Assembly (NCBI GenBank): GCA_963817895.1
Contig: CAWFQB010000002.1
Location: 448,001-512,000 of the forward strand
Length of the DNA: 64,000 nucleotides
DNA from: an uncultured Chthonomonadaceae bacterium
GTDB lineage: Bacteria; Armatimonadota; Chthonomonadetes; Chthonomonadales; Chthonomonadaceae
Direction of reading: 5' to 3'
The notes under the pieces were generated by a model. It worked only from the letters and a program-made list of their open reading frames with translations. It ran no database searches and was not told the DNA's origin. Within the stretch, counting starts at the first letter, position 1, and each line of letters starts with the position of its first letter. Below, piece by piece: positions 4,122-41,084 of the stretch. The position numbers and the translations under genes are program-made.

Positions 4122-5271
4122 TTATGTCAGCGCAGCGTCTTTGATGGCGGCAGAAGTGGAAACGGGCATGGAAATCGCTGCCAGCGCTTCCTCCACTGTG
4201 GAGTAAAAATTCAAAGCCTCATCGCCATGCGCGGCGCGAAGCGTCTGCAGCACCCGCGCGTTTGCCCCGGCCAGGCACACTTCACATCCGGTATGCGCGG
4301 CGCGGCGCGGCAGGTTGAGCAGCGCGCCGACAATGGCCGCGTCAATCCCGCTCACTGCCGTTAAATCCAGAACCAGATGCGCGGGCAAATTCAGGATGCG
4401 CTCACAGCGCGCGTTAAGTTCCGGCTGTTGCCCCGCGTCCAATTCACCCTGGGCGCACAGCACAATACTCTCTTCGGCGCGGGATTCCGTCCACAGCGCA
4501 GGCTTGCCCGTTTGTTTCGCGCGGCTCACGCGCCATTGAACAACAAAACGGCTTCCAAACTGCCCCACATCCCGCGTATACCGCTTCCATAACCGCTTCG
4601 GCTCCTGCGACAGACGGAATACCCATTCCAGTCCCGTTTTTTGCATCCACCGGGGCGCGCGCGTTATTTGCCCCGCAATGAAATCGAAGGTTCCCCCCAC
4701 GCCGATACAAACGGGGACATTTCGCAGCGCCTCGCGGTTGCGGTGTATCCACTTTTCCTGCTTGGGATTGCCAAAGGCAACCAGCAGGATGTCGGGGCGG
4801 GCATCTTCAATGTCGCGCAGCAGAGGCCCATTGTCCATGCTTTCCAGAGGCTGCGCAGGCGGGGAGACGCAACCCACGATTTGCAAATTGGGGTGCGTTC
4901 TCAGTAGATTCGCTTTTGCCTGCTGCGCCACTTCCGGCTTCGCGCCGAGCATGTAAATGCGATAACCTTTTTCCGCTGAAAGCGCGGCCAGCGCAGGCAC
5001 AATGTCCGCGCCTGTGACGCGCTCCGGCAGAGGCATGCCCAGGCGCGCGCGACGCCCATACCAGCGGCATACCATCCGGCATAACCAGATCGGAGTAGCG
5101 CAAAATGTGACGCAACTCCGCATCCGACTCCGCGTTGATGACAAAATCCGCGTTTGCCGTTGCCACCTGATGAAAGCTCTGTGCCCGGATGAACTCTTCC
5201 AGACGCGCCATCACGCCCGACATATCCAGAACATCCACGGGAGTATTGAGTATACAGACGAGTTGACGCAT
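4122..5271 (-). CDS. WecB/TagA/CpsF (WecG-like) glycosyltransferase fused to a C-terminal STAS domain; frameshift near 5045
   Basis: N-part VATANADF...VMPDGMPLVW (ORF 4807-5271) joins ERVTGAD, AFGNPKQEKW, GVGGTFDF, GLEWVFRL and STAS-like LVLDLTAVSGID (ORF 4122-5144). Confidence 0.85.
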
Positions 5272-30057: not shown

Positions 30058-32181
30058 ATGCCGATAACGTCCCGCGCCGGCAAAAACTCCGGCGCGAAAA
30101 CCGAAAACAGTAAGACCGAGGAAGCCCGAAAGCAGCGTCGGCGTCAGCTTGAACCCGATTGCGACACGCTGGCGGAGTTTTTCGGGCCGACCGGTCCGCT
30201 TGCCCGCGAACTGCCCAATTACGAGGCCCGCATCGAGCAGATTCAGGTGGCGGAAGCCATTGAAGAGGCTATGCGGGAGGGCAAGCCCTGCCTGACGGAA
30301 GCCAGCACGGGCGTTGGCAAGTCCCTTGCGTACCTCGTTCCGGCTGTGCGGGCGGCGTTGGACGGCAAAGTGACGGTTATCAGCACCCATACCATCAGCC
30401 TTCAAAACCAACTGATTGAGAAAGATATTCCCCTCGTGTTGCGCATGTTTCCCAACGCAGAGGAGAACGTGCAGGCGACGCAGATGAAGGGGCGGGGCAA
30501 TTTCCTGTGCTTGCAGGATTTGGACAGCGCCCGTTCGGATTTGTTCGCGGCTGCCGACCCGCTGTTTCGCAAACTGGATACGTGGGCGCGGCGCAGTGAC
30601 ATTACGGGCGATGTGGCTGACTTGCCGTTCACGTATCCGCACTGGGGCGAAGTGGCGAGCAACATGGATACGTGCCGGGGGCAGGAGTGCCAGTTTTACG
30701 ACTCGTGCTTTTACTATCGGATGCGGCAGGCCGCGTATGGCAGCAAAATCATCGTCGTCAATCACGCCCTGTTCTTTTCCGACCTGCTGTTGCGGCGGGG
30801 CGATCCGAACGCGGGGATTATTCCCGATTACGATTACGTGGTTTTCGATGAGGCGCACCATCTGGAAGACGTTGCCACCAAAACCTTCGGCATCGAGTTC
30901 GGTTCGCGCCGTCTGGTCAATCTCATGGAGCGTATCAAGCACGTCAAGGGGCTGGATATTGACCGCAGCCGCCTGCAAATGCTGGAAGATATGAACGCCA
31001 GCCTGTTCGTGCCGTTTTTGCAGGCGGGGCGCAACGAGTTCGTGTTTGAGGACGTGCTGCATGACGAAAACCGCGCCCACGTCGAGAACTGGACAACCCA
31101 AACCTGCAACAGCATCGGGGAACTGCAAAACGATATTCTCAAAGTGGCGAAGGACGACGAGAACCTGCGCGACCGACTGGAAGGCATGGCGCGTTTGTGC
31201 GGGCGGGCGCGCGAAGAGCTGTCACAACTCTTTTTTCAGCAGGACGAGAACGCCATACGCTGGGCCGATATTTCGCTCATGGGCAAGGGCGACAAAAAAG
31301 AACCCCGCGTCACGCTGCACTTGACGCCCGTTTCCATCGCCAAAGTGCTGGAAGAGCATTTGTGGAACAGTGAACGCCTGCATAACAAAGGCGGCAGTAT
31401 TATCATGGTGTCGGCCACGCTCGCCAATTCCGGCACGTTCAGCTATGTGCGGCAGCGATTGGGCGTGCCGAGCGACGCGATTGAGCGCATTGTCGGCAGT
31501 CCGTTCAACTTCAAGCAACAGGCACTGCTGTATGTGCCGGGACATTTGCCCGCGCCCGCCCCGACCGGCGCGTACATGGATAAGATGATAGCCGAGATTG
31601 AGCGCATCCTGAAATTGACGGGCGGACGGGCGTTTCTGTTGTTTACCAGTCGGGCGGTGCTGAACGCGGTTTATGACCGTTTGAATGGCAGGCTGCCGTT
31701 CCCGCTGTTCAAGCAGGGCGACTTGCCGCCGGGTAAACTCATCGAAGCGTTCAAAGCCAGCGGCAACGGCTGTCTGCTTGGCGCGAAAACGTTTTGGGAG
31801 GGGGTGGATGTGCAGGGCGAGTCGCTGTCATGCGTGATAATTGATCGCCTGCCGTTCGCGGTTCCCGATTCACCTGTCACCAAAGCCCGCGTCAGCGTGA
31901 TTGAAAAGGCGGGCGGCAACTCGTTCCGCGATTATTCCATTCCGCAGGCGCAAATCAGTTTAAAGCAGGGTTTCGGACGGCTGATACGAACCCGCAATGA
32001 CCGGGGCATCGTGTGTATTCTGGACACCCGCCTGATAACCAAAGACTACGGCGCGGAGTTCGTACAATATCTCCCGCCCGCCAGTCGCGCCAGCAAATGG
32101 CCCCGCGTGGAAAAGTTCTGGCACGGCGAACCGGAGGCTGTATCTAACCTTTCCGCTCAGACAGAAACAGAAGCGGCGTAG
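30058..32181 (+). CDS. dinG: DinG/YoaA family ATP-dependent helicase with Fe-S cluster
   Basis: EASTGVGKSLAYL, KGRGNFLC, CRGQEC..YDSC, VNHALFF, FDEAHH, SATL, FWEGVDV, QGFGRLIR. Confidence 0.92.
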   Translation: MPITSRAGKNSGAKTENSKTEEARKQRRRQLEPDCDTLAEFFGPTGPLARELPNYEARIEQIQVAEAIEEAMREGKPCLTEASTGVGKSLAYLVPAVRAALDGKVTVISTHTISLQNQLIEKDIPLVLRMFPNAEENVQATQMKGRGNFLCLQDLDSARSDLFAAADPLFRKLDTWARRSDITGDVADLPFTYPHWGEVASNMDTCRGQECQFYDSCFYYRMRQAAYGSKIIVVNHALFFSDLLLRRGDPNAGIIPDYDYVVFDEAHHLEDVATKTFGIEFGSRRLVNLMERIKHVKGLDIDRSRLQMLEDMNASLFVPFLQAGRNEFVFEDVLHDENRAHVENWTTQTCNSIGELQNDILKVAKDDENLRDRLEGMARLCGRAREELSQLFFQQDENAIRWADISLMGKGDKKEPRVTLHLTPVSIAKVLEEHLWNSERLHNKGGSIIMVSATLANSGTFSYVRQRLGVPSDAIERIVGSPFNFKQQALLYVPGHLPAPAPTGAYMDKMIAEIERILKLTGGRAFLLFTSRAVLNAVYDRLNGRLPFPLFKQGDLPPGKLIEAFKASGNGCLLGAKTFWEGVDVQGESLSCVIIDRLPFAVPDSPVTKARVSVIEKAGGNSFRDYSIPQAQISLKQGFGRLIRTRNDRGIVCILDTRLITKDYGAEFVQYLPPASRASKWPRVEKFWHGEPEAVSNLSAQTETEAA

Positions 32182-32380
32182 CCCCCAGGGCCGGCGCATG
32201 ACGTATTTTTCCTATCTCATCAGCGAAATGAACGTTCGCCATAATGAGATTAAGATGGCCGGCCCTATACAACTCACTCTCCCTATGGACAATGCAATCT
32301 GCGCGTGGTAAACTGTCGCATATGCCGGGTATATCCGCATATTGCGTTTTAATACATCTGCGCGTTGAATTGTCGTTAGC

Positions 32381-33628
32381 ATGGGGAGAGTAGGCGTGGC
32401 CGAATATACTGTAAAAGATGTCCTGAACCGTTTCAATCCGAAGCGCACTCTGCTGGATTATGAATTGGATGCGTATTACATTTCCCGCCCACATGCGCCC
32501 TTGGAGAAGATGAAGGCGTTTCTGTTGAGCAATGAGGAGCCTGTCAAGGTACTGTTCAGCGGACATCGCGGGAGTGGCAAATCAACGGAACTCAGACGAC
32601 TGGCAAAAGGTTTGGAAACGCACTTTTACATCGTGCCGTTTTCGGTTGCCGGTATGCTAAATATGGCGGATTTGAAATATGCCGATGTGGTTCTGGCCTG
32701 TGCCGTCGCTCTGATTCGTAAGGTGATAGAGGATGGCAATTTCGTAACCCTTGATGACAAACTACAGCAAAACCTGTACGATTTTCTCACCAATGAGATT
32801 ACGAAAGAGACTACCATTGCGACAACAACCTCCGGCAATATTTCCGCGAAACTGACGCAGCTGATTCTGAGCATTGAAGCCAAGTACGGCAAGGAAGCAA
32901 CCACGCGCGAAACCATGCGCCAGAAGCTGTTTCCACGTCTCACCGACTTGATTGACCGGGTTAATTCTGTTTGCGTTGCCATCAAGAGCAAAACGGAACG
33001 CCTGCCGCTGATCGTGGTCGAGGACCTGGATAAGGCTCTGCTGACGGATACCCGCACGTTGTTCTTCGACAATGCCGTTGCGCTGAACAGTTTGGGGTGT
33101 CACGTCATCTACACATTCCCCATCGCGCTGTGCTACTCGACGCAGTTTCCGCCGCGCAAACGGGATTATGATAACCACTTTTCGCTGCACAATATCAACA
33201 TCAATCAACACGCCCTGCACAATGAACCAGATACAGATGGGCGAAACAAACTACGTGAGGTTGTCACCCGGCGCGTACAATCCGAACTGTTTGCCGGGAA
33301 CGCGCTGGATACCATTATTGATTTGAGCGGCGGATTGATGCGTGACCTTGTGCGTATTGTACGCAAATCGGCGCTGAACGCAATTACAGCCAATAGTCCG
33401 GTAATCACGGTTGAAATGGCGCAGCAGGTGGGAGCGGAACTCGGTGACGACTATCGGCGCATCCTGCTTCCTGCCCACTACGAGGCGCTGCGAACCGCCC
33501 ATAGAAGCAAGGAGATCGTTCCCAACGAAACGGTACAGCAATTGCTGGAAAACCTCAGTCTGTTGGAGTACCATGATGATGCCGTTTGGTGTGACGTCCA
33601 TCCGGTTGTTTTGCCCCTGCTCACATAA
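32381..33628 (+). CDS. P-loop ATPase (AAA+/STAND-like) with C-terminal winged helix
   Basis: Walker A FSGHRGSGKSTEL, Walker B IVVEDLDK, SGGLMRDL, C-terminal LLEY...WCDVHP; start may be GTG 32396. Confidence 0.85.
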   Translation: MGRVGVAEYTVKDVLNRFNPKRTLLDYELDAYYISRPHAPLEKMKAFLLSNEEPVKVLFSGHRGSGKSTELRRLAKGLETHFYIVPFSVAGMLNMADLKYADVVLACAVALIRKVIEDGNFVTLDDKLQQNLYDFLTNEITKETTIATTTSGNISAKLTQLILSIEAKYGKEATTRETMRQKLFPRLTDLIDRVNSVCVAIKSKTERLPLIVVEDLDKALLTDTRTLFFDNAVALNSLGCHVIYTFPIALCYSTQFPPRKRDYDNHFSLHNININQHALHNEPDTDGRNKLREVVTRRVQSELFAGNALDTIIDLSGGLMRDLVRIVRKSALNAITANSPVITVEMAQQVGAELGDDYRRILLPAHYEALRTAHRSKEIVPNETVQQLLENLSLLEYHDDAVWCDVHPVVLPLLT

Positions 33629-33661
33629 GTAGATTCGGCGCATAATCTCGTATATAGCAAC

Positions 33662-35965
33662 ATGAACCCGCAACTGCAAAAACTGATTACCCTGCTGACC
33701 TATTCGGATGATGGAGCGTTCGCAATCGCGCTTTATGATCGGGTCGCCATACGTCAGGAGATGCTGAAAACGCTCAAAGAACAGTTGAAGCAGCGTGTGT
33801 ACGAGTTGACGTTGACGGGCAGCCAGCGTAACCCAATAGACCTGATACGGAACCTCAAGCCGCAGACGGGCGAAGTCGTCTGCCTGTATGATATAGAACG
33901 CGCCTTTCCTGACGCGCTCGGCTATCTGGATTTGCAGCGCGAAGTTCTGGCGGATTTGAATATCTCCCTTGTGGTTTGGGTAAATCACTACGAGTACCGC
34001 GAACTTGCCACAAAAGCGCCGAATTTCTATGCTTTCCGAACGTCCACGTTCGACTTTACCAACCCCGCCGAAATTCCCGTTACCGAACCTCTGTTCGTGG
34101 GACGCGAACCCGATCTGGAAATTCTGCGTAGCCTGCTGGAAAAGGGCGGATGCGTGACGCTGACGGGATATGGCGGCGTCGGCAAATCCACGCTTGCCCT
34201 GCAACTGTCGCGCCGGATGCGTTCGCGATTTCAGGAAACGGTTTGGGTCAACTGCGAAACTCGTCCACTGTTGGGCGATATTCTGTTGCAAGTGGCTGTC
34301 GTGCTGATGGGCGAGGGGATGCGGCAGGTCGGCCCGGACGAACAGCGTAAGCGGCTGGCAAAAGCCTTGTGCGAACGTCCGTGCCTGATTATTCTGGACA
34401 ACTTCGAGTCGGTTGGCGAAGACCATGATTTGCTGCACTGGCTGAAAACGGTTTCTGCGCCAAGCGCGGTGTTACTCACGTCACGCCAACAGGTTCCTGA
34501 ACTTGACACGCCCAACTATTCCCTGCCCGAACTGCCCCCCAATGAAGCTATTGAAATGTTCACGTTGCGGGCGCGACAGGCCGGATGGCAGGGAGAAGAA
34601 GCCGAGATTGTGCCGCGCCTGTGCGAACTCATCGGCAATCTGCCCCTCGCAATCGAACTGCTGGCCGCCCGCGCCGACGAACTGCCCCTGTCGCAACTGT
34701 TGGAAGAGGTCGGCAAAAGCCTGAACGCGCTTGTTTCCGGTGACGACCCCTTACGCGCCGAGCGCCACCAGAGCATCGCCGCCTGTTTCCGCGTATCCTT
34801 CGACCGTCTCAGCGACACCGCCAGAGAACTGCTCAAACGTCTCAGCATCCTGCCCGATGGAGCCAGCGAACAAATCATTGCCAACTTCACCCAAATTCAG
34901 GACTTGCAAAAGTCCATTGAGGAATGTATTGCTCATTCCATGCTTGAGGCTAACGGCAAAAAATATAAATTTCATCCTCTAATCCGTCGCTTTGCTATGA
35001 CACAATTAGGTACAGAGTTGGTTAAGTGGCAACAAAAGCTTGTTGCTATCATGCATCGGATTGCCATTGACAATGACGACCCCAATGATCCTGAAAAACT
35101 TGCGGTGTTTGATGTAGAATGGCGGAATATTTGTGCTGCGGCCTTTGTTGCTACGGAACTTAAAGATTGGGAAGCAGTAGTTGAATTGTCTGAACATTTG
35201 AGCGACTTTCTGATTCTACGTGGATTGGTACTAGAAGCAGAACGTTTGATGAAGCAGGCTATTCCAGCGGCAAAAAAAGCAGTCGACCCTTATTGTGAAG
35301 CTGTCGTTTTGAACAATTTGGGTCAGGTTTGTATTCGGCTTCATAAATTCAACGAAGCCAAAATATATTTTGCTGAAGATTTATCTATTAGTCATAGGTT
35401 AGGTAATCTTCTTGGTGAGGCACAGTCGCATCATGACCTCGGCAGTGCCTTACTCGGGCTTGAACTACTTAAAGATGCAGAGCAGCAGGTACACAAGAGT
35501 GCCGAAATAGCGGAAAAATATGGTGAAAAGCGACTTATCGCTTTAAATCATTGTTTACTAGGACGAATTTACCACAAAAGCAAACAACTTGCTGCTGCAG
35601 AGAAGGAACATATAAAAGGCTTTGAATTACTTCTAGAATGCGGGAATTTCTTTGAGGCGGGGAAGGCTCTGAATAACCTAGCAAATATTTACCTATCGCA
35701 AAAACGATGGAAGCAAGCAGAGAAGTACTACCTCGAAAGTTTGCAACTAGCCCGTCGCTTTAACTACCGCCTTGACGAAGCTAGCGCTCTTTCTAATCTT
35801 GCTCTTGTTGAGTCAGGCCGTGGCAACAGGAGCAAAGCAATTGAACTAGCTGAAGCAGCATTAGCCGTTTTTCAATCTACTGAGGATGAGGAAAATATAC
35901 GAGAGGCATACAAGTTTGTATGTGATTTACAACAAAAGAAAGGAACAGTAAAGGCTATATTTTGA
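33662..35965 (+). CDS. STAND (NB-ARC) NTPase with N-terminal non-catalytic domain and C-terminal TPRs
   Basis: FVGRE, GYGGVGKSTLA, IILDNFE, LLTSR, GNLPLAIEL, FHPLIR; TPRs with LNNLG/LNNLA/LSNLA. Confidence 0.88.
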   Translation: MNPQLQKLITLLTYSDDGAFAIALYDRVAIRQEMLKTLKEQLKQRVYELTLTGSQRNPIDLIRNLKPQTGEVVCLYDIERAFPDALGYLDLQREVLADLNISLVVWVNHYEYRELATKAPNFYAFRTSTFDFTNPAEIPVTEPLFVGREPDLEILRSLLEKGGCVTLTGYGGVGKSTLALQLSRRMRSRFQETVWVNCETRPLLGDILLQVAVVLMGEGMRQVGPDEQRKRLAKALCERPCLIILDNFESVGEDHDLLHWLKTVSAPSAVLLTSRQQVPELDTPNYSLPELPPNEAIEMFTLRARQAGWQGEEAEIVPRLCELIGNLPLAIELLAARADELPLSQLLEEVGKSLNALVSGDDPLRAERHQSIAACFRVSFDRLSDTARELLKRLSILPDGASEQIIANFTQIQDLQKSIEECIAHSMLEANGKKYKFHPLIRRFAMTQLGTELVKWQQKLVAIMHRIAIDNDDPNDPEKLAVFDVEWRNICAAAFVATELKDWEAVVELSEHLSDFLILRGLVLEAERLMKQAIPAAKKAVDPYCEAVVLNNLGQVCIRLHKFNEAKIYFAEDLSISHRLGNLLGEAQSHHDLGSALLGLELLKDAEQQVHKSAEIAEKYGEKRLIALNHCLLGRIYHKSKQLAAAEKEHIKGFELLLECGNFFEAGKALNNLANIYLSQKRWKQAEKYYLESLQLARRFNYRLDEASALSNLALVESGRGNRSKAIELAEAALAVFQSTEDEENIREAYKFVCDLQQKKGTVKAIF

Positions 35966-36032
35966 TGGTTGATTTTACAGCCCCAGCCGTGCAATGAATT
36001 GCGCGGTCTCACTCCAATCTTCCGTTTTCGCA

Positions 36033-36251: not shown

Positions 36252-37031
36252 GTGTTCGCGCGCTTGCGAGAAGATATACATACGGTTTTTCATAAAGACC
36301 CTGCCGCCCGCAGCCTGCTGGAAGTGCTGACGTATCCGGGTTTGCATGCCCTGTGGCTGTATCGTTTCGCGCATGGCCTGTGGCGACGCAAACTCAAACT
36401 TGGGGCGAGGTTTGTTTCCCAATTCGGCCGTTTTATGACCGGCATCGAAATTCATCCCGGCGCGACCATTGGCCGGCGTTTCTTTATTGATCACGGCATG
36501 GGCATCGTGATCGGCGAAACGGCCATTATCGGCGACGACGTGCTGCTGTACCATCAGGTGACATTGGGCGGCACGAGTCTGGACAAAGTGAAGCGTCACC
36601 CAACACTGGGCAACGGCGTTCTTGTCGGCATGGGCGCAAAGATACTTGGCCCGATTACCATTGGCGACCATTGCAAAATCGGCGCGAACGCGGTTGTCAA
36701 CAAAGACATTCCCGCCAACTGCACGGTTGTCGGTATTCCGGGGCGAATTATCCGGCAGGATGGGATTCGCGCCGGGGAAGATTATGCCATGCTGGGCTTG
36801 ACCGCTCCCTCCGATGCGGACAGCGGCGTCATGGACAACTTCATCAACCGCGTGGACCCGCAGGACGAAACCATCCGCGAAATGCGCCAGCGGTTGGAAC
36901 TGCTGGAACAGCACAGCGAAAAATTGGAAGAGCTGATTGCCCGTCTGGAAGCGCACGAGGGGCATCACCACAACATGGAACACGCGCCTGCCCGTGTGGG
37001 ACACGGTTCCCACCATTCCGAAAACAGATAA
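36252..37031 (+). CDS. cysE: Serine O-acetyltransferase
   Basis: [46 protein letters not shown]. Confidence 0.95.
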
Positions 37032-38961: not shown

Positions 38962-39068
38962 AGGTTTCAGGTGTCAGGTGTCAGGTGTCAGGAAAACACG
39001 TTTCTTTGTTCTCATGGTAGAGACGAGATGTACTTCCTGACACCTGAAACCCGAAACCTGAAACCTGA
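38962..39068. repeat. Inverted-arm heptamer element, unit GGTGTCA/TGACACC (TGAAACC)
   Basis: aggtttcaggtgtcaggtgtcaggtgtcagg ... cctgacacctgaaacccgaaacctgaaacctga. Confidence 0.85.
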
Positions 39069-39078
39069 CCCCTAACCT

Positions 39079-39827
39079 ATGCTTTATCTCGTCGCCACAC
39101 CCATCGGCAACCTGTAAGACATAACCCTCCGCGCGCTCGAAACGCTGCGAGCGTGGATGTTGTCGCCAGTGAAGATACCCGCAAAACAGGGATGCTGCTC
39201 AAGCATTTCGAGATTCAGAAGCCGCAAATCTCCTTCCACGAACACAACGAAGACCACGCCAGCAACCGGATTCTGGACATGCTGCGGGAGGGCCGAAGCG
39301 TGGCGATTGTCACGGACGCGGGAACGCCCGGAATCGCTGATCCCGGTTTCGTCATGGTGCGCAAGGCCATCGCGGAGGGACACGAATTCACCATGATTCC
39401 CGGCCCAACGGGTCTGATTATGGCGCTGGTGCTGTCCGGGCTGGCGGTTCACAGTTTCACCTTTCGCGGTTTTCCTCCCCAAAAATCCGGCCCGCGCAAA
39501 CGCTTCTTTGAAACGGATGCCGCCGCCCCCCATACCCTCATTTTCTACGAAAGCCCCTACCGTCTGGAATCCTGCCTGCGCGACGCGCTGGAAGTGTACG
39601 GCGACCGCAACGCCGCCCTTGCCAACGACCTGACCAAAATGTTCGAGAAGGTACAGCGCGCCCCGCTTTCCGTCCTGCTGCAAGCCGTAAAGGGCAAAAC
39701 TCTCAAAGGCGAGTACATCGTCGTCATCGCCGGCATCGAGCGCGTCAGCCGTGCGGCAAAGGATGAGGGCGGAAGGATGAAGGATGAAGAGGAGGACGCG
39801 GATACGGAAGAGGGTGACGATGAGTAG
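39079..39827 (+). CDS. rsmI: 16S rRNA C1402 2'-O-methyltransferase; in-frame TAA at codon 13 and a frameshift near 39150 (error or pseudogene)
   Basis: [19 protein letters not shown] then [34 protein letters not shown]. Confidence 0.85.
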
Positions 39828-39938
39828 AAAGGGAGAACAGAAGAAGCGAAGAAGAGACGAAAAGGAGAGTGAGGAAGAGGACAGAGAACAGGAAACAGGC
39901 AATGAGACTTCATCCCTCATCCTTCATCCTTCATCCTT
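39758..39938. repeat. Inverted-arm heptamer element, unit AGGATGA/TCATCCT, lying inside coding sequence
   Basis: aaaggatgagggcggaaggatgaaggatgaa ... ttcatccctcatccttcatccttcatccttt. Confidence 0.75.
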
Positions 39939-41084
39939 TGCCGCCACTATCAACTATCAAATATCAACTACGCATGGCTCTCTCCGCCTGCCCATCTATC
40001 TGCCGGACGCGACATTGGGCGTGGTGCGGGCGGTGGATGCGTCGGATTTGCGGGCGGTGGGTATTGAAGCGCTCGTGATGAACGTGTTTCATCTGATGCA
40101 GAAGCCGGGTTCTTCGACCATTGCCGCGCTTGGCGGGCTGCACAAAATGGCGGATTGGACGCGCCGATTATTACGGATTCGGGCGGATTTCAAGCGTATT
40201 CGCTTGTGCGGCAAAACGCTAAATTCGGGACATTGAGCGATCATGGGATCCGCTTCAAGCCGGAAGGCGCGGAGCGCGAGTTTCAACTGACGCCGGAAAA
40301 AAGCGTTCAGCTGCAAATGGCGTATGGCGCGGACGTGGTGATTTGCCTGGACGACTGCACCAATGCGAGTGACAGTCTGGACGAGCAACAGCGTTCTGTA
40401 GCGCGTACAATCGCGTGGGGCAGACGCTGCAAGGACGAATTTGTCCGGCAGTTACAGGCGCGTAAAATCACGTACGCGCCGGAGATAAAGCCGGATGATG
40501 CTCCGCGCCCCCTGTTGTTTGGCGTGGTGCAGGGCGGCGCGCAGGTGGAATTGCGTCAGGAATGCGCCCGCGCCCTGCTTGATATCGGCTTTGATGGTTT
40601 CGGATACGGCGGCTGGCCGCTGGATCAGAGCGGCAGCCTGCTTGCCGACATGCTGCAAGCGACACGGGAAGCCATTCCCGCCCAATTTCCCATGCACGCG
40701 CTCGGCATCGGTTCCCCGGAAAGCGTGATCTTGTGTTCGCAGATGGGCTACGGCATTTTCGACTGCGCTCTGCCGACCCGCGACGCCCGCAATGGCCGCC
40801 TGTACGTGTGGAAATCTGACCCCGCGCAAATGGATTTCACGTCTACAACGCTTGTCAAAAACGAGTGGCTTGATACGCTGTATATTGACGACGAAAAGCA
40901 CACCAAAGTAGACAGGCCGATTTCCGCTTACTGCGACTGCCCCACCTGCTCTCGCTACTCCGTCGGCTATCTGCGCCATTTGCGCAAAGTCGGCGAAACC
41001 CTCTACTTCCGCCTTGCCACCCTGCACAACCTGCGCTTTATGACGCAGTTAATTGAAGGGATAAGAGCAAAGGATGAAGGATGA
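39820..41084 (+). CDS. tgt: tRNA-guanine transglycosylase family protein; frameshift near 40155
   Basis: [41 protein letters not shown], zinc site CDCPTC...HN. Confidence 0.88.

Follow-up and report, generated by a model that had tools for sequence, protein, structure and literature searches.

What might a STAND-type receptor drive when no enzyme can be recognised at its front end? The question is raised by two neighbouring genes in a 64,000-nucleotide (nt) stretch of DNA from an uncultured Chthonomonadaceae bacterium (contig CAWFQB010000002.1, positions 448,001 to 512,000), which we call the window and whose own numbering we use. Gene A (32381-33628, + strand) encodes an ORC/Cdc6/TnsC-like AAA+ ATPase, and gene B (33662-35965, + strand), which follows after a gap of 33 nt, encodes a 767-residue protein made of a pseudo-ATPase domain, an NB-ARC module (AP-ATPase-type STAND) and a TPR sensor. 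The original prediction had taken the pair for a candidate two-component defence or conflict system, in which a STAND-TPR sensor is coupled to the upstream ATPase by a degenerate N-terminal domain. We find that the pair belongs to a real, widespread and unnamed two-gene module, whose function we propose from sequence and models, and that it is a variant of the known theme of an active ATPase joined to an inactive one. The core is the ATPase/pseudo-ATPase module, and the NLR-like architecture is one cargo of many.

The N-terminal domain of B (residues 1-132; 33662-34057, + strand), which we delimited from a fold model, an alignment and a complex prediction, has a five-stranded AAA+ core without Walker A and without helical lid, and keeps only a remnant of Walker B; we refer to it as the dead domain. 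Its model (residues 1-138) has a predicted local distance difference test score (pLDDT) of 94, with helix-strand units in AAA+ order and helices following strand 4. Structural comparison, which the original prediction had asked for, placed Cdc6/Orc1 first (2qby; Z 11.5, root-mean-square deviation (rmsd) 3.1, 135 residues aligned), followed by TnsC (Z 11.2, rmsd 2.8, 134 aligned) and MuB (Z 11.1, rmsd 3.1, 134 aligned). AAA+ proteins fill the list, and BrxB is absent among the 50 fold matches listed. The suspected degenerate P-loop fold is thus borne out as an AAA+ core that has lost Walker A. Likewise, the absence of a known effector motif from this part of B held up, as residues 1-138 have no match at E<=0.1 in Pfam, PADLOC or NCBIfam; across 61 dead domains there was no consistent Pfam or PADLOC family match. 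When the dead domain and its own ATPase were compared profile against profile, the probability was 1.5%, so descent by duplication of gene A was not shown. A profile search (E<=0.001) puts the dead-domain family at 4,612 representatives at 50% identity, and the family spans bacteria and methanogen-type archaea.

Gene A keeps the motifs of a nucleotide-binding ATPase. It carries the P-loop GHRGSGKS and the EDLDK motif read in it originally, with Walker A at 32561 (+ strand) and Walker B at 33011 (+ strand), together with a sensor-1 Thr (near 33113, + strand) and an SGGxxR motif (33326, + strand). In an alignment of 61 ATPases, the Walker A Lys is present in 61/61, the sensor-1 Thr in 59/61 and Arg316 in 42/61; Walker B is kept and Lys213 is invariant. 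A helical insert of ~105 residues lies between strands 2 and 3, and the C-terminal end, previously described as resembling a winged helix-turn-helix, consists of a helix and a beta-hairpin that align with the winged-helix end of Cdc6/Orc1. At the position equivalent to its own arginine finger (residue 257) gene A has no Arg. The only Pfam match is a weak one to AAA_16, below the cut-off. The model (pLDDT 95) is closest to Tn7 TnsC (Z 16.6, rmsd 3.7, 285 aligned) and Cdc6/Orc1 (Z 15.4, rmsd 4.7, 275 aligned), with archaeal STAND-type ATPases also near, and PDB sequence searches with the ATPase and dead-domain alignments returned nothing informative. Among 7,999 candidates scored, 413 were homologues of gene A at E<=0.001.

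The two parts travel together. The ATPase alignment yielded a first set of 80 genome loci, five of which end inside the ATPase and five of which leave no room downstream; a homologue of the dead domain lies directly downstream of the ATPase in 63 of the 70 evaluable loci, six of the seven misses are from Thermoflexus, and the seventh locus has 245 nt of room. Once relatives, plasmids and 80 metagenome loci were added, the dead domain was directly downstream in 158/169 evaluable loci, a count that is partly circular because the profile iterations had themselves drawn on these downstream segments. Co-occurrence of the two genes, without which the original idea of a pair would have failed, is therefore the rule. 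The profile is also specific, finding exactly five places in the 7.5 Mb genome of the source organism, each behind an ATPase. Pairwise identities of ATPases and partners correlate (Mantel rho 0.55, permutation maximum 0.20), which shows co-inheritance, not co-evolution. Two proteins combine ATPase, dead domain and TPRs in a single chain, each a single record and one with an internal deletion. The six lone Thermoflexus ATPases (L010, L017, L018, L043, L044 and L052) have intact motifs and occupy a conserved site before a response regulator; the dead domain was found in one of the five Thermoflexus genomes searched. A different arrangement occurs on a Calothrix plasmid (AP018277.1; L119:7851-15358), where two tandem ATPase genes are followed by a WD40 protein with two dead domains.

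How the two proteins might meet is suggested by a complex prediction, in which gene A and the B domain were folded with ATP and Mg, and three control proteins were used. The complex scored 0.92, whereas the best of the three controls scored 0.00; the score mark was calibrated on known cases, being reached by 116/157 solved pairs and 2/215 mismatched pairs. The runs share at least 94% of contacts, with a partner pLDDT of at least 91. The predicted complex is 1:1 and has the geometry of neighbouring AAA+ protomers, with residues 58-59 (P-loop), 213, 316, 320 and 323-331 of A, which bring in its P-loop and lid helix, facing residues 90-94 and 120-129 of B. The latter include the invariant Arg93 (codon 33938, + strand) and also Arg126 (codon 34037, + strand). 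On this model the dead domain very probably binds gene A, and the proposed coupling of the B N-terminus to the upstream ATPase takes the form of a predicted direct contact.

The interface points to a split active site, in which gene A has an intact cis half-site and the dead domain offers conserved trans-face arginines. We surveyed 153 pairs, of which 5 were skipped as misaligned or truncated. In the remaining 148, Arg93 is kept without exception (148/148), and the second Arg of the dead domain lies just before strand 5, where the arginine finger of AAA+ proteins sits. In ShTnsC, the residues that complete the pocket in trans are Q185 and R189 (10.1101/2021.05.25.445634). Cyanobacterial-type ATPases of the present family share this Q-x-x-x-R spacing, and we therefore assigned the finger position to residue 257, an assignment made from motif spacing and not from residue-level superposition. 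An Arg at the finger position is found on the partner only in 84/148 pairs, on the ATPase only in 40 and on both in 1; in the window's clade it is present on 0/62 ATPases and 53/62 partners. On a FastTree phylogeny built with the finger columns excluded, the ATPase-only state needs 4 changes. An exchange of the finger Arg between ATPase and partner is thus suggestive but unproven, while donation of an arginine by the dead domain to gene A appears likely from its conservation and from the analogy with BrxB discussed below. The Arg of GHRG in the P-loop (window 32567-32569) and the ATPase's own finger Arg almost exclude each other (P-loop Arg only in 78 pairs, finger Arg only in 40, both in 1, neither in 29), a pattern that largely reflects one clade.

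What the dead domain carries behind it varies. Gene B itself has an NB-ARC module with intact motifs (34094-34995, + strand), matched by Pfam PF00931 above the cut-off over residues 157-357, and TPRs matched by PF13424 (TPR_12), also above the cut-off. The NB-ARC motifs are Walker A GYGGVGKS (169), Walker B LIILDNFE (242), LLTSR (271), GNLPLAI (325) and an MHD-like FHP (437). The earlier description of a 767-residue NB-ARC/TPR protein 33 nt downstream of the ATPase is therefore accurate for this copy. Across the family we scanned 53 of the 63 partners, excluding short or truncated ones. The dead domain is followed by TPRs only in 40/53, by NB-ARC or NACHT in 8/53 (E<=1e-6) and by WD40 repeats with weaker NTPase matches in 3/53, and 2/53 had no match. 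Cargoes include TIR-NB-ARC-WD40, DUF4062-NACHT-FGE-sulfatase, NACHT-HEAT, NB-ARC-TPR with a 2H phosphoesterase and, in cyanobacteria, nSTAND1-WD40. Since 40/53 partners carry TPRs without a second NTPase, the STAND-TPR architecture is not the core of the system; of the two-component STAND-TPR system originally proposed, the pairing of ATPase and partner stands, and the STAND-TPR part is optional cargo.

The same variety is seen within the source genome (G000), where all five module copies pair an ATPase with a dead domain. The window copy has an NB-ARC-TPR cargo; the other four are a NACHT-HEAT, a TPR, a split TPR gene and a copy whose ATPase has an internal stop. They lie at C6:376076-381154 (- strand), C10:23067-25981 (+ strand), C10:85518-88309 (+ strand; ATPase with internal stop) and C1:609699-612474 (+ strand; partner split into two open reading frames (ORFs)). 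Two extra ATPase fragments occur at C2:682.4 kb and C11:35.8 kb, and the genome also encodes dozens of distant NB-ARC-TPR paralogues (~22-32% identical to B) that have no dead domain. The ATPase, too, has other companions, with further homologues fused to vWA, ABC-type ATPase or additional STAND domains. For instance, P0276, P0280 and P0281 have the ATPase fused N-terminally to an ABC-type (AAA_15/AAA_21) ATPase domain. On a Nostoc plasmid (NZ_CP040291.1; L115:6048-11221), a VMAP-MoxR-vWA operon encodes a vWA protein that ends in this ATPase, with no dead domain downstream of the fused ATPase. Kaur et al. 2020 describe that slot of the vWA protein as the effector position (PMC7159879).

Gene B also appears to have changed its sensor. 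GC content at third codon positions (GC3) drops from 0.66 to 0.33 at codon 420, a value so low that only 2/1,493 long open frames in the genome reach it. P0271, a protein from another contig, is identical to B at 114/135 positions over the dead domain and at 267/285 (94%) over residues 136-420, compared with 88/322 (27%) over residues 446-767. This identity gradient recurs in L001 and L007, which are more distant homologues. The reading frame of B is open, and B and P0271 are both full length. This step is most simply explained by recombination close to where the NB-ARC ends, and the helical/TPR sensor of B, whose low-GC 3' part we delimited by GC3 and homologue comparison (34922-35965, + strand), was likely swapped in recently.

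Several known systems resemble the module. First, BrxC-BrxB of type I BREX likewise joins an ORC/Cdc6-clade ATPase to a small inactive AAA+ domain (PMC13326643, PMC12839542). There, BrxB supplies R182 to the BrxC ATP pocket and bridges BrxC to the effector PglZ, and BrxB:PglZ raises BrxC ATPase activity 2-6 fold (PMC13326643). Like BrxB, the dead domain is without Walker motifs and helical lid, is predicted to sit at the ATP site, would likely supply an arginine there, and links the ATPase to another module. Unlike BREX, the module has no PglX, PglZ or BrxA neighbours (no PglX or PglZ among the 150 neighbours scanned), no BrxB model appears in the Pfam/PADLOC matches of 61 dead domains and no BrxC in the PADLOC matches of 61 ATPases. 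The dead domain has helices after strand 4 in place of the beta-sheet cap described for BrxB and is fused to variable TPR or STAND cargo, and BrxC keeps R330 whereas the 410-residue gene A clade has no finger Arg of its own.

Second, the nSTAND2 pair predicted by Kaur et al. 2021 (PMC8195603) is a mobile two-gene operon of an active and an eroded STAND-like NTPase, with the inactive protein fused to variable C-terminal modules and a predicted counter-invader role. Both of its proteins keep the arginine finger, as opposed to 1/148 pairs here, and its inactive protein has a winged helix-turn-helix with a GT4 or HEPN effector (PMC8195603), neither of which was found among the 53 partners (E<=1e-6). 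The nSTAND2 model PF20702 matched 0/61 ATPases (E<=0.001) and 0/61 dead domains (E<=0.1). Third, as in Avs/bNACHT proteins, the STAND NTPase of B is intact and precedes a TPR sensor, and WD40 and FGE-sulfatase sensors like those listed for defence STANDs (PMC13581612) occur in relatives of B. Unlike in Avs, the effector position is occupied by a pseudo-ATPase adaptor, the STAND is optional and the upstream ATPase is nearly always present. The PADLOC check suggested at the outset gave no Avs or bNACHT model for gene B in PADLOC 2.0 (a 2023 library without the newer Avs types), only a generic TPR model and three weak matches (E<=0.1), consistent with a pair outside the single-gene Avs types. Gene B also has no hydrophobic segment >1.5 (19-residue Kyte-Doolittle).

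Other relatives are further off. TnsC, MuB and Cdc6/Orc1 (PDB 7mbw, 8xvb, 2qby) are the closest solved folds for both gene A and the dead domain, but identities are 10-16%, transposase or origin context is absent, gene A has the large helical insert and the halves of the active site are split between two proteins. Unlike the MoxR-vWA ternary systems (iSTAND, VMAP), MoxR and vWA genes are absent around the window and do not recur as neighbours. The KAP model PF07693 matches 18/61 ATPases (E<=0.001), not including the window's, and is often carried by Atlas look-alikes of the homologue P0059. KAP NTPases have transmembrane segments inserted in the NTPase domain; unlike these, the insert of gene A is modelled as a soluble helical bundle, with a best 19-residue hydropathy of 1.57. 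As for the Npun2340/2341 family, AAA_35 was not among the Pfam matches of the ATPases. The literature searched held no description of the pair, although the unread supplements of PMC13581612 and PMC8195603, or subscription papers, could hold one. On these comparisons, the module seems to work like BrxB-BrxC and the predicted nSTAND2 pair while being a member of neither, nor of Avs.

Taken as a mechanism, the pair could be a sensor-gated ATPase switch of the immune or conflict type, with the ATPase as its output, a reading of the whole that we hold tentatively and at slightly less than even confidence. By analogy with known STAND biology, the TPRs would bind a foreign or stress ligand, the NB-ARC would swap ADP for ATP and then oligomerise, and the clustered dead domains would recruit and fire several ATPases. 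Each dead domain would dock on the ATP site of gene A and complete it in trans with its arginines, so that gene A would be fully active only when engaged by its partner. The output might then come from ATP consumption or, conceivably, from action on DNA or protein through the winged helix and the helical insert. Of the parts of this reading, a role in conflict is mildly favoured because of the sensor swap, the patchy, multi-copy and often broken distribution and the varied cargoes. That the ATPase itself is the output, the least secure part of the scheme, strikes us as an even call, favoured by its place in the vWA effector slot and by the 40/53 TPR-only partners.

A number of observations weigh against the sensor-gated switch. 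No enzymatic effector is recognisable in gene A or B with Pfam, PADLOC or NCBIfam, and the best NCBIfam matches of B, far below the cut-off, are a TPR protein of ribosomally synthesized and post-translationally modified peptide (RiPP) biosynthesis and the regulator AfsR. The ATPase lacks an adjacent partner in 11/169 loci, and intact-looking solo ATPases persist in Thermoflexus, where 4/5 genomes have no dead-domain match. The complex prediction may have passed through likeness to solved AAA+ neighbours (ORC, TnsC, BrxB-BrxC); its controls were unrelated proteins, with other AAA+ domains not among them, and an Arg-phosphate contact is not among the outputs of the tool. In 23/148 pairs neither side has an Arg at the finger position. 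For the finger exchange the tree offers just 4 independent pairs, of which on average 2.4 go in the same direction and 0 in the opposite one, and with these a sign test (p 0.25-1) cannot become significant. For BREX, the authors suggest that the stimulation may stem from ADP release (PMC13326643). Finally, the neighbourhood, whose analysis the original prediction had proposed as a check, does not speak for defence. PADLOC matched 15/150 flanking proteins vs 17/150 control proteins (E<=1e-10), mostly generic folds on both sides, in what is a coarse test of single-protein matches and not of called systems; the flank sample was 150 of 157 picked, with five near-duplicate loci dropped, and the control sample 150 of 206 from distant regions in ten of the same genomes. 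Nor was there a recurrent third gene among 694 neighbour ORFs, where only response regulators, ABC transporters, TPR proteins and genus-specific synteny recur.

The alternative that survives best, though we think it distinctly unlikely, keeps the docking and reverses the logic: the ATPase would regulate or remodel its partner, as BrxC or MoxR do, either holding the receptor off or loading and recycling it, and any toxic output would come from the cargo or from elsewhere. The predicted interface fits either direction, and the bridging of BrxC to PglZ by BrxB (PMC13326643) would suit such an arrangement. Some cargoes also bring candidate effectors of their own, namely TIR_2 (L025), DUF4062 (L002) and a 2H phosphoesterase (L009), with weak cyclase matches in the L004, L011 and L016 cargoes, and in these cases the effector could be something other than the ATPase. 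Against this, 40/53 partners consist of nothing beyond the domain and TPRs, which leaves no effector to be held in check; linked effector genes do not recur; and in one ternary operon, as in one further protein, it is the ATPase that fills the effector slot of a vWA protein.

Also improbable in our estimate is a non-immune signalling switch, in which the TPRs would read a host metabolite or protein and the Cdc6-like ATPase would use its winged helix to bind DNA or would remodel a host complex, in the manner of AfsR- or MalT-type STAND regulators. The lack of defence-island enrichment agrees with it, as do the AfsR and RiPP-TPR models being the nearest NCBIfam matches, the dozens of distant NB-ARC-TPR paralogues in the genome, the absence of matches in phage records or viral contigs and the interspersion of non-defence STAND clades with defence ones (Lee et al., PMC13581612). 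Sensor exchange between near-identical genes and the free exchange of NACHT, NB-ARC, WD40 and FGE cargoes argue the other way; broken copies and patchy presence (17/201 phylum genomes) fit an arms race better, and no shared neighbour or operon target was found. A selfish addiction-type pair, in which a toxic protein is neutralised by its companion, is very improbable: it would explain linkage and patchy spread without sensing, and it suits the tight linkage of overlapping or near-abutting genes, the several divergent copies per genome (mutually 19-26% identical) and the finds on cyanobacterial plasmids, once in the company of toxin-antitoxin genes and integrases, but it would make large sensor cargoes with intact STAND motifs dispensable and does not sit well with persisting solo ATPases with intact motifs or with single-chain fusions.

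The distribution of the module is patchy. Strong ATPase matches (E<=1e-15) were found in 12/41 genomes searched, its own included, with only short weak matches in six more, and 17/201 genomes of a phylum sample have ATPase matches (E<=1e-25); the locus is accordingly not a conserved core one, whereas a conserved core locus with a regulatory function is what the original prediction would have taken as refuting it. A search of 40 relatives gave no close match to gene B. Homologues are present on nine cyanobacterial plasmids. A viral location was considered and rejected: neither 50,697 phage records nor two scans of viral contigs yielded a match.

The pair lies, as first described, between a DinG-like helicase (30058-32181) and a cysE-like acetyltransferase (36252-37031). 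Two congeners (G001 and G002) have other genes at the corresponding flanks. A clean empty site could not be shown: in G001 a distance of ~1 Mb separates dinG from cysE, the query used did not recover dinG in G002, and cysE has other genes upstream of it in each congener. After dinG in G001 there is a two-gene pair with a weak AbiEii match (L103:4702-6689; E 8e-4), hinting that the site after dinG takes variable cargo.

Some details of the locus needed adjustment. Gene A is an ORF of 415 residues from its ATG, as originally called, but its true start is probably GTG 32396, giving 410 residues, because a GGAGAG motif lies upstream, the database protein has 410 residues and homologues start there. 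Upstream of gene A, 32286-32314 (+ strand) matches the sigma-70-like consensus with an extended TG; this is a consensus match only, in a region with 8 such matches vs 3.5 expected. The repetitive extragenic palindromic (REP)-like palindromes noted nearby are real, one lying 21 nt past the gene B stop (35987-36006, + strand) and three sites in the window comparing with 0.01 expected by chance, but they are not part of the module: the repeat occurs at 19 sites across the genome, with no site closer than 134 kb to any of the other four copies, and it was rejected as a component of the system. Long inverted repeats of short tandem units (7-mer type) occur at 38962-39066 and 39753-39944 of the window, in intergenic sequence or low-complexity gene ends.

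On the broadest reading, which we consider somewhat unlikely, these loci would represent a widespread, unnamed immune system built on a split AAA+ site, where a plug-in pseudo-ATPase adaptor would allow receptors of any kind (TPR, NB-ARC, NACHT, WD40 or FGE-sulfatase) to arm a TnsC/Cdc6-like effector ATPase, with the side that bears the finger varying by lineage and the adaptor either activating or capping and inhibiting. Known bacterial NLR-like receptors have an enzyme at the front end; here the front end is predicted to be an adaptor that completes the site of a separate ATPase. The dead-domain family is large, with its 4,612 representatives, yet it has no Pfam or PADLOC model. If the defence role is true, the module would add an effector class and a modular wiring rule to prokaryotic immunity, and if it is not, it would still be a clear case outside BREX of a catalytic residue shared by an ATPase and a pseudo-ATPase.

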